This document shows, piece after piece, positions 6,910 to 58,290 of a stretch of 64,000 nucleotides of DNA. The stretch is from NCBI GenBank assembly GCA_024137785.1, contig JAHRHZ010000062.1, positions 22,502,015 through 22,566,014 of the forward strand, written 5' to 3'. Position 1 is the stretch's first letter. Each line of letters opens with the position of its first letter. The notes beneath the pieces are model-generated. The model saw only the letters and a program-made list of their open reading frames with translations. It was not told the DNA's origin and ran no database searches. The DNA is from Ginglymostoma cirratum. Lineage: Eukaryota. Both the position numbers and the translations under genes were made by a program.

Positions 6910-7044
6910 CCCAGGTGCTGCTTGAAAGGATGGGCGAGCGATACCTGGTAGGCCCAGCTTATGCTGGATGGTTGTTGCTGATACAATCTGTGCAGAAGAC
7001 ATTGCCGCCATGCTCTGAAGGGCTTTATCCTTCACTGCTTGATC
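6910..7044 (-). CDS. TEAD1: TEAD1 coding exon DQAVKDKALQSMAAMSSAQIVSATTIQHKLGLPGIARPSFQAAPG
   Basis: 135 nt within ORF 6820..7092; acceptor ttcaAG, donor GTAAGT. KLGLPGI.RP.F..APG is TEAD1-like among the paralogs. Confidence 0.96.
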
Positions 7045-7412: not shown

Positions 7413-8128
7413 GAGATAAAAGGTACTGCAGATGCTGGAGAATCCGAGATAACAAGGTGTGGGGCTGGATGAACACAGCAGGTCAAGCTTGACATTTCGG
7501 GCCTAGAACCTTCATCAGAAATGGGGGAGGGGAAGAGGGTTCTGAAATAAATAGGGAGAGAGGGGGAGGCGGATAGAGGATGGATAGAGGAGAGGATAGG
7601 TGGAGAGGAGGCAGACAAGTCGAAGAGGCGGGGATGGAGCCAGTAAAGGTGAGTGTAGGTGGGGGGGGTAGGGAGGAGATAGGTCAGTCCAGGGAGGATG
7701 GACAGGTCAAGGGGGCGGGATGATGTTAGTAGACAGGAGATGGGGGTGGGGCTTGAGGTGAGAGGAAAAACAGGTTAGGGAGGTGGGGATGAGCTGGGCT
7801 GGTTTTGGGATGCGGTTGGGGGAGGGGAGATTTTGAAGCTTGTGAAATCCACGTTGATACCATTGGGCTGCAGTGTTCCCAGGCTGAATATACCCCCCAC
7901 CTACACTCACCTTTACTGGCTCCATCCCCGCCTCTTCGACTTGTCTGCCTCCTCTCCACCTATCCTCTCCTCTATCCATCCTCTATCCGCCTCCCCCTCT
8001 CTCCCTATTTATTTCAGAACCCTCTTCCCCTCCCCCATTTCTGATGAAGGGTCTAGGCCCAAAACGTCAAGCTTTCCTGCTCCTATGATGCTGCTTGACC
8101 TGCTGTGTTCATCCAGCCCCACACCTTA
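7413..8128. mobile_element. Penelope-like element remnant with inverted pseudo-LTR and 14-bp target-site duplication
   Basis: TSD TACTAATTCCACTA at 7399-7412 and 8129-8142. Inverted arms at ~7454-7670 and ~7891-8127. Minus strand ~7825-7890 encodes FSLGTLQPNGINVDFTSF, the C-terminal motif of the Penelope GIY-YIG endonuclease. Confidence 0.85.
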
Positions 8129-11726: not shown

Positions 11727-11738
11727 CATGTTGGTTAC
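11727..11738 (-). CDS. TEAD1: TEAD1 12-nt alternative microexon, VTNM
   Basis: Minus strand reads ...ttgcaaacAG|GTA ACC AAC ATG|GTAAGT. Frame-preserving, and at the position of the mammalian TEAD1 VTSM microexon. Confidence 0.9.
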
Positions 11739-16421: not shown

Positions 16422-16543
16422 AAAGGAATGATACAGTCAGAGAAAGTTTCAACATAGGATAAGGGCACTCTCTGTGGAAGAGGGAAAAAAAAAAAGAGGT
16501 CAGAAGCATAGCAACTGCAAGCCCAAAGCAGACAAGCGCATAC

Positions 16544-16606
16544 CTTTAGCTTGGAATGAATCTCACGAGATTTCCTTCTGGCAAGAACCTGAATGTGACT
16601 AGACAC
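16544..16606 (-). CDS. TEAD1: TEAD1 TEA helix-3 exon B (canonical type), VSSHIQVLARRKSREIHSKLK
   Basis: 63 nt; long pyrimidine tract then ttAG (16607-08), donor AAG|GTATGC. Closely matches mammalian TEAD1 VSSHIQVLARRKSRDFHSKLK. Confidence 0.96.
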
Positions 16607-16700
16607 CTAAAGGGTAGGGGAAGGGAGGAAAACAAAGAGAAAAAAAAAGCCTGTAACCATGGAAACAAAAGCCCCTTGCAACTAGGCGAGCCAGACGTAC

Positions 16701-16763
16701 CTTTATGGCAGCTTGAATTTCCCGAACTTTCTTCCTTGCTAACACCTGTATGTGACTAGACAC
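16701..16763 (-). CDS. TEAD1: TEAD1 alternative TEA helix-3 exon A, VSSHIQVLARKKVREIQAAIK
   Basis: 63 nt, open frame; acceptor gtgtAG (16764-65), donor AAG|GTACGT (16699-700). Paralogous to the adjacent exon at 16544-16606. Not shown in the ORF track. Confidence 0.88.
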
Positions 16764-17980: not shown

Positions 17981-18190
17981 CTGTGGATGCTGGGAATCAG
18001 AAAATGAAAACATAAATTGCTGGAAAAACTCAGCAGGTCTGGCAGCATCGGTGGAGAGAAATCAGAGTTCATGTTTTGGGTCCAGTTCTGAGGAAGGGTC
18101 ACTGGACCCGAAATGTTCACTCTAATTTCTCTCCACAGACGCTGCCAGACCTGCCGAGCTTTTCCAGCAAATTCTGTTTTTGTTTCAGCA
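17981..18190. mobile_element. Penelope-derived fold-back element inside a decayed minus-strand CR1 fragment
   Basis: Arms ~18007-18087 and ~18101-18180 are reverse complements. Centre reads CTGAGGA-AGGGTCACTGGACCC-GAAA. Confidence 0.75.
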
Positions 18191-20403: not shown

Positions 20404-20468
20404 CTGCTTCCTAGTGCGTGTCTTCCCTGTTCTTAGCTTGATATACCTGGCTATCAACTCATTACGAC
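20404..20468 (-). CDS. TEAD1: TEAD1 coding exon, TEA domain (G)RNELIARYIKLRTGKTRTRKQ
   Basis: Manual translation gives the invariant TEA segment. 65 nt; acceptor ttgcAG (20469-70), donor GTaaaa (20402-03); phase 1 to phase 0, as in the known TEAD exon structure. Confidence 0.97.
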
Positions 20469-47299: not shown

Positions 47300-47490
47300 A
47301 CAAAGGCTAAGAAGAAACTCAGCAGGTCTGACAGCATCTGCGGAGAGAAAACAGAGTTAATGTTTCAAACTAGCTCTGAAGAAGAATCATTGGACTTGAA
47401 ACATTAACTCCACAGATGCTGCCAGACCTGCTGAGTCTCTCCAGCAATTTCTGTTCTTGTTTGCTTCAGATCTTCAGCATTTGCAGTTGT
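47300..47490. mobile_element. Penelope-derived fold-back element
   Basis: Inverted arms (actcagcaggtctgacagcatctg / cagatgctgccagacctgctgagt) around CTGAAGA...GAAA. Confidence 0.7.
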
Positions 47491-58019: not shown

Positions 58020-58290
58020 TTCCCCACAGTCCCACAGCCTGATGGTTAGCAACTCCTTTGTCTGTCCAACTGCCTTTCTCTCTCTTTGGGCTCTATCCTA
58101 TCGTTTACTCCCTACCCCACGCACCTCCCTATTTTCTGCACATAAACTGACGTTTTCCCAGCCACCACCAGTTCTGAGGAAGGGTCACCAAACCCGAAAC
58201 GTTAAGTCTGTTTTATCCTTCATTGATGCTGCCAGACCTGCTGAGCTTTTCCAGAAACTTTATTTTTGTTCCTGATTTACAGCATCCGCA
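58020..58290 (+). mobile_element. Penelope-like pseudo-LTR fragment with hammerhead-like core
   Basis: CTGAGGA-AGGGTCACCAAACCC-GAAACGTT at 58174-58203, followed by the gatgctgccagacctgctgagcttttccag block shared with the copies at 18.1 kb and 47.4 kb. Confidence 0.75.

Follow-up and report, generated by a model that had tools for sequence, protein, structure and literature searches.

The window analyzed here, a stretch of 64,000 nucleotides from the nurse shark Ginglymostoma cirratum, carries on its minus strand the gene TEAD1 (TEF-1), which surrounds the intron under study (Table 1). A downstream exon in the window shows 100% identity to shark, ray, and chimaera TEF-1/TEAD1 proteins, and the exons are collinear with a cartilaginous-fish TEF-1 protein; the matched cartilaginous-fish TEF-1 proteins possess both the TEA and YBD domains defined in Pfam. 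TEAD1 and TEAD3 constitute the DNA-binding end of Hippo-YAP signaling, and the duplicated exon pair, here termed A and B, swaps the end of the recognition helix. In solved PDB structures, the peptides of exon A and exon B each find their match at the end of the TEA domain. The two exons are identical at 45 of 63 nucleotides, share one open frame, and diverge from exon residue 11 onward, with RKKV in A and RRKS in B. The serine of RRKS is one that we take to be Ser102 of human TEF-1, reported as a PKA site; hence, the A/B switch may remove a phosphorylation site. In exon B of the shark TEAD3-like locus described below, an alanine occupies this position.

Table 1. TEAD1 features around the exon A/B pair, in window positions
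Feature	Position	Strand	Remark
TEAD1 upstream exon, 65 nt, TEA domain helix 2 region	20404..20468	-	
Exon A, 63 nt, helix-3 exon copy 1 (VSSHIQVLARKKVREIQAAIK)	16701..16763	-	
Intron between the exon A/B duplicates, GT-AG, 94 nt	16607..16700	-	
15-nt element CCATGGTTACAGGCT, intron 39-53	16648..16662	-	same letters in TEAD3-like paralogue and L022
A47, predicted branch adenosine	16654..16654	-	sole internal TNA word, top U2 score
A-free pyrimidine-rich tract, 36 nt, intron 50-85	16616..16651	-	
A86, 8 nt from 3' end, possible minor branch site	16615..16615	-	weak context
Exon B, 63 nt, helix-3 exon copy 2	16544..16606	-	form in solved TEF-1 structures
Conserved YGCY-rich intron start 3' of exon B	16509..16543	-	possible regulator site
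Micro-exon, 12 nt (VTNM)	11727..11738	-	same residues in shark models
Next large exon, 135 nt, linker start	6910..7044	-	

The VTNM micro-exon likely corresponds to human TEAD1 exon 6, and annotated shark models occur both with and without it. A simple pattern search of 20 kb of the TEAD3-like locus gave no convincing counterpart, and the next large exon lies beyond that span. The intron preceding the 135-nt exon holds an inverted repeat of 190 bp with 97% identity between its arms (window 7454-7666 and 7893-8127), which could pair in the pre-mRNA. A palindromic interspersed repeat of about 175 bp, with a 79% self-match, lies at window 18007-18185 and has copies near 47311-47462 and 58168-58287.

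Intron composition and branch-point candidate

The 94-nt intron has adenosines at positions 3, 18, 24, 25, 41, 47, 49, 86, and 93 and nowhere else. Positions 50-85 comprise 0 A, 21 T, 12 C, and 3 G (92% pyrimidine), and A86 leaves 8 nt to the 3' end of the intron; our recount reproduces exactly the adenosine positions and the A-free, nearly pure pyrimidine stretch given in the preliminary description. Several comparisons indicate how unusual this is. When the minus strand of the window is divided into 680 tiles of 94 nt, 5 have an A-free run of at least 36 nt, and the region from -44 to -10 is A-free at 2 of 95 pyrimidine-rich YAG sites, one of which is possibly this very acceptor. When the letters of the intron were shuffled 100,000 times, positions 50-85 lacked A in 1.7% of cases. 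The zone from -45 to -18, whose edge is the analyst's choice (A49, at -46, falls just beyond it), contains 0 A and 0 TNA words at the exon B acceptor, as against 2-14 A and 1-6 TNA words at the seven other TEAD1 acceptors located (exon 9 excepted). The support given by these composition statistics by themselves is modest; stronger support comes from conservation in two further introns. The exon B acceptor is preceded by no AG at intron positions 51-92, and downstream of A47 there is no TNA word save that of the acceptor itself. As a separate observation, the intron contains no stop in the frame of exon A; at 94 nt its retention would shift the frame, and the 90-nt intron of the L022 contig described below is a multiple of three.

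In the window intron A47 is the sole internal TNA word, and it (A49 in L022) attains the top U2-pairing score, a simple pairing count against the branch-site consensus, in all three introns compared. The predicted branch thereby lies at donor +47, +47, and +49 in TEAD1, the TEAD3-like locus, and L022. Table 1 of PMC2991248 gives a mapped branch site of MBNL1 to which the 9-mer around A47 has two mismatches. An AG stands 2 nt past A47; as AGs nearer than 12-18 nt to the branch point are blocked, according to PMC5378181, the spliceosome should skip it. The distance of A86 from the 3' end equals the minimum of 8 nt given in the same source (PMC5378181), and A86 lacks a U at -2; it is retained in L022 and missing from the TEAD3-like intron, and from its position it could act as a minor escape route. 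Since no usable A is available farther downstream, we infer that A47 is likely the branch point of exon B, a prediction made from the sequence.

This candidate makes the earlier assertion of a branch point within 49 nt of the exon A donor the most likely arrangement, with the best U2 match conserved at +47, +47, and +49. The candidate is not a distant one: it stands 47 nt before the 3' end in TEAD1 and 39 nt before it in the paralogue, in contrast to the branch points of tropomyosin and OGDH. The interval from -15 to -55 holds about 96% of predicted human branch points (PMC2991248). The class of distant-branch-point introns, for which PMC2991248 requires over 100 nt between branch point and 3' splice site, was rejected as a description of an intron that in its entirety measures 86-94 nt. 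The 23 supplement files of PMC5378181 covered, from a total of 27, hold no TEAD entry.

A 15-nt element in TEAD introns

The nurse shark genome holds two TEAD-like loci besides TEAD1. One of these, on contig C271, scores best against named TEF-5/TEAD3 proteins and has an A/B exon pair too; its 86-nt intron carries CCATGGTTACAGGCT at positions 39-53, the same distance from the donor as in TEAD1. A third intron comes from L022, a contig from a metagenome collection recovered by a pattern scan in which one locus was confirmed among the 596 matches listed. It is a TEAD1 locus, bony-fish-like or ray-finned-fish-like by its exon B peptide, and has the same CCATGGTTACAGGCT at positions 41-55 of a 90-nt intron. 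The A-free stretches behind the element measure 36, 35, and 30 nt in TEAD1, the TEAD3-like locus, and L022, respectively, and are 89-92% pyrimidine, and the 32 nt on its 5' side are identical between TEAD1 and the TEAD3-like paralogue at just 15 of 32 positions. The probability of sharing such a 15-mer by chance is roughly 7e-4, and lower still for an equal position. The intron of a near-identical relative, seen in a single contig of depth 2.5 from one of four sequencing runs, differs from that of the window solely in 2 nt inserted into the tract that follows the element. Genome-wide, CCATGGTTACAGGCT has 9 occurrences in 4.36 Gb, about the level of chance, 2 of which are the TEAD sites; the idea that it is a rare word was thus rejected, and what counts is its shared place in TEAD paralogues.

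The remaining TEAD paralogue, on contig C8, is compact, with just one B-like exon, which encodes the same peptide as TEAD1 exon B. No A-like exon was found in the preceding 1.3-kb intron or in the following 10 kb, and the best match to CCATGGTTACAGGCT at this locus covers 11 of 15 positions. Its acceptor is ordinary, with 5 A and 2 TNA words before it. TEAD2, TEAD4, and a second TEAD1-like gene are all candidates for its identity.

The distance from donor to candidate branch is kept in all three independent introns and in the near-identical relative, a small sample in which values of 47 and 49 speak against strict fixation. The preliminary description had called for comparison of related introns in respect of length and A-depletion: the latter is conserved, as an A-free tract of 30-36 nt in each of the three, and length is similar but varies (94, 86, and 90 nt). 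Given that the element and the A-free tract are common to these three introns and absent at the single-exon paralogue, we conclude from sequence comparison that the geometry is real and ancient. Further, as a branch site needs about 7 nt, the invariance of all 15 suggests that the element has an additional role beyond the branch site and outside a steric model.

Double inclusion and the basis of exon choice

An untargeted protein search gave 120 proteins, 65 of which cover the site: 41 are B-only, 17 A-only, and 7 A+B models, so that each of the tandem homologous exons is used singly. In a targeted search that ranked A+B first, all 120 proteins, the best 120 of 267 matches, were A+B models; those of TEAD1 come from cartilaginous and bony fish, amphibians, reptiles, birds, and mammals and those of TEAD3 from fish and lamprey. 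Among 36 newly listed cluster members 13 are A+B, a proportion biased by the picking of the six clusters for their A+B representatives. In rays, skates, bichirs, teleosts, amphibians, birds, and mammals, A+B appears as numbered isoforms alongside A-only and B-only ones. These models are computed annotation, which establishes neither how abundant nor how certain double inclusion is, and none of the 120 listed stems from run assemblies; alternative isoform models usually require introns supported by RNA-seq.

Nonsense-mediated decay (NMD) is powerless against such products, as had been noted beforehand, because 63 + 63 nt keeps the frame and the A+B proteins are open; exclusion enforced by NMD is thereby ruled out. 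In an A+B protein, exon A corresponds to residues 72-92, and the Pfam TEA match ends at residue 80; as the match ends within the first residues common to A and B, double inclusion would keep an intact TEA domain and add 21 residues. A structure model of low confidence (mean pLDDT 57.6) likewise keeps the fold and lengthens helix 3 into a single helix spanning residues 69-111. With the TEA domain predicted to remain intact, selection for an absolute block to A-to-B joining may be weak.

How near the geometry comes to such a block depends on the limit assumed. Passages of PMC7969005 place the donor-to-branch limit at about 50 nt, terming it a "proposed" threshold, and give mapped OGDH branch points at +25 to +41 in human and +46 in a fish. 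A distance below 50 nt from donor to predicted branch was found for 57 of 629 human mutually exclusive exon clusters in the part of PMC5740500 concerned. A pair resembling tropomyosin exons 2a/2b in the nurse shark itself (L042 1167-1665, contig C81), with exons of 126 nt each and a 247-nt intron, shows the classical steric geometry: its best branch candidate is at +36, and no AG occurs at 15-245. Against these values the TEAD distance of +47 to +49 is marginal. Similar spacing between donor and branch occurs in constitutive introns of about 70 nt, which are spliced nonetheless. The preliminary description had spoken of a built-in steric block, which overstates the case for a distance at the edge of the limit in genes with A+B models across vertebrates; the predicted TEAD distance lies at the edge of the limit of about 50 nt that it took as established, and the limit itself is termed "proposed" (PMC7969005).

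The intron start downstream of exon B is also conserved between TEAD1 and the TEAD3-like paralogue. Relative to the window, it is identical at 30 of 35 and 28 of 35 positions in the corresponding segments L002 1713-1747 and L022 596-630, and farther into this intron identity is 47/90 and 46/90. YGCY occurs 4, 3, and 3 times per 60 nt after exon B, against a background mean of 0.66, and MBNL is a reader of YGCY. By sequence, this conserved stretch suggests protein regulation of the A/B choice. In human TEAD1, exon 5 is an alternative exon under the control of SRSF1 according to passages of PMC9410899, in which the word "mutually" has 0 occurrences.

Taking these findings together, we propose a partial steric brake at A47 combined with protein regulators that set the A/B choice, a reading to which we give slightly better than even credence. 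The conserved element would fix the branch point of exon B at A47, near the exon A donor, where U1 on that donor and U2 on A47 would crowd each other, making A-to-B joining slow but probably not impossible. We postulate that through this crowding most transcripts join the upstream exon to just one of A and B, and that, with 47-49 nt being at the threshold, some A+B message escapes, which would be tolerated because the TEA domain is complete within the residues common to A and B. The choice between A and B would fall to proteins bound to the long U-rich tract and to the YGCY-rich stretch after exon B. Were A+B common, the geometry may matter little.

A strict steric block, in which no transcript joins A to B and the A+B models are artefacts spread by cross-species protein alignment, is the stronger version, as first proposed in the preliminary description. 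It accords with a predicted TEAD distance that falls under the 50-nt value used in passages of PMC5740500 and PMC7969005, with the fish OGDH branch mapped at +46 (PMC7969005), with the many species having A-only (17/65) or B-only (41/65) models, and with the lack of any run-assembly protein among the 120 A+B listed. We nevertheless consider it unlikely, as numbered A+B isoforms stand beside single-exon isoforms across vertebrate groups, and the TEAD distance sits at the threshold, as opposed to +36 in the tropomyosin pair of the same genome. The A+B products in the annotation also fit another proposition, namely that RNA-binding proteins regulate the pair, that the 15-nt element serves chiefly for protein binding or regulation beside a branch point of the kind usual in short introns, and that the spacing is incidental. 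An element exceeding the length of a branch site, the conserved YGCY-rich start of the intron after exon B, and a branch 39-47 nt from the 3' end, within the usual range of -15 to -55, all agree with this. It leaves unexplained the A-free 30-36 nt common to the three introns and the fact that their differences in length fall mostly behind the element, while the single-exon paralogue has neither feature; we regard incidental spacing as quite unlikely.

A conserved RNA structure might also enforce the choice, be it docking-selector pairing or a hairpin that covers a splice site. In each of the three loci the exon B donor is predicted to lie in a hairpin, and the element itself could form one of 4 bp. 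No fold in nine RNA segments beats its shuffles (z, -0.47 to +1.75), and the intron folds give no signal either (z, +1.83 and +1.20). The best long-range partners found for the element do not surpass those of its shuffled versions, and their places differ among the three loci; competing conserved docking/selector pairing is not above shuffles, in what, with three loci only, is a weak test. A search of Rfam yielded no credible match, with one at an E value of 0.89. Enforcement by RNA structure thus appears very improbable. Incompatibility of U2 and U12 splice sites was likewise rejected, the donors being unlike the U12 donor consensus as judged by eye.

Returning to the partial brake, a bolder form of it would see the 15-nt element as an ancient tuned valve predating the TEAD1/TEAD3 duplication, with the branch exactly at the steric limit, so that cells would produce A, B, and A+B as three DNA-binding forms in regulated proportions, and with the RRKS serine beside the recognition helix present or absent according to the exon chosen. 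We view this as doubtful; if true, a central factor of the Hippo pathway would offer a natural, in-frame readout of the minimum donor-to-branch distance of the spliceosome. If A47 is the branch point, the TEAD pair joins a short list of pairs with a physically explained exclusion rule. As it sits at 47-49 nt, and as A+B escapes NMD and can be counted, the pair offers a natural test of the limit of about 50 nt. One would expect variants that fall within the 15-nt element to alter TEAD isoforms.

Relation to known steric exon pairs

The steric class of mechanism and the annotated TEAD exon pair are already known. The supplement of PMC8373072 lists, as event 210, a human TEAD3 pair of the same A-type and B-type exons and dates it to Vertebrata; by its coordinates the intron there measures 189 nt, as against 86-94 nt here. 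The rows on this pair catalogue the exon duplication without a splicing mechanism, and TEAD1 gives 0 matches in that supplement (PMC8373072). The steric class in the part of PMC5740500 concerned shares with the TEAD pair a predicted branch less than 50 nt from the donor, and the text and supplement files searched, appendix figures excepted, have 0 matches to TEAD1 or TEAD3. The supplement of PMC7954323 was flagged for TEAD3, yet it has 0 matches by name. A link of TEAD to a steric or branch-point mechanism was not found in the literature and supplements covered (PMC5740500, PMC8373072, PMC7969005, PMC7954323, and PMC5378181); figures and subscription journals might hold one. As far as this search shows, what appears new from the sequences is the 15-nt element with A47 common to TEAD1 and TEAD3-like introns and the putative use of a steric device in TEAD.

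In the alpha-tropomyosin gene, Smith and Nadal-Ginard reportedly described in 1989 exons 2 and 3 as equal-length, in-frame duplicates with a donor-proximal branch point. The TEAD pair resembles these in having duplicated in-frame exons and a candidate branch close to the donor. It differs in that the tropomyosin branch is well within the limit and truly distant, as in the same-genome pair with its candidate at +36 in a 247-nt intron, whereas that of TEAD is at +47 to +49. A close parallel is offered by OGDH exons 4a/4b, which, as described by Kralovicova et al. in 2021 (PMC7969005), share with the TEAD pair the tandem duplicated exons, a short intron, a branch near the donor, an A-poor, U-rich tract behind it, and conservation throughout vertebrates, with the fish OGDH branch at +46. 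There the branches are mapped and far from the 3' end, whereas those of TEAD are predicted and 39-47 nt from it; the OGDH intron is 122 nt in human and has long AG-free zones in fish, against TEAD introns of 86-94 nt; and double inclusion shifts the frame in OGDH, whereas A+B of TEAD is in frame (PMC7969005). In terms of sequence features, the TEAD pair, with its branch predicted at the edge of the distance limit, resembles the steric class apart from the long branch-to-acceptor distance.
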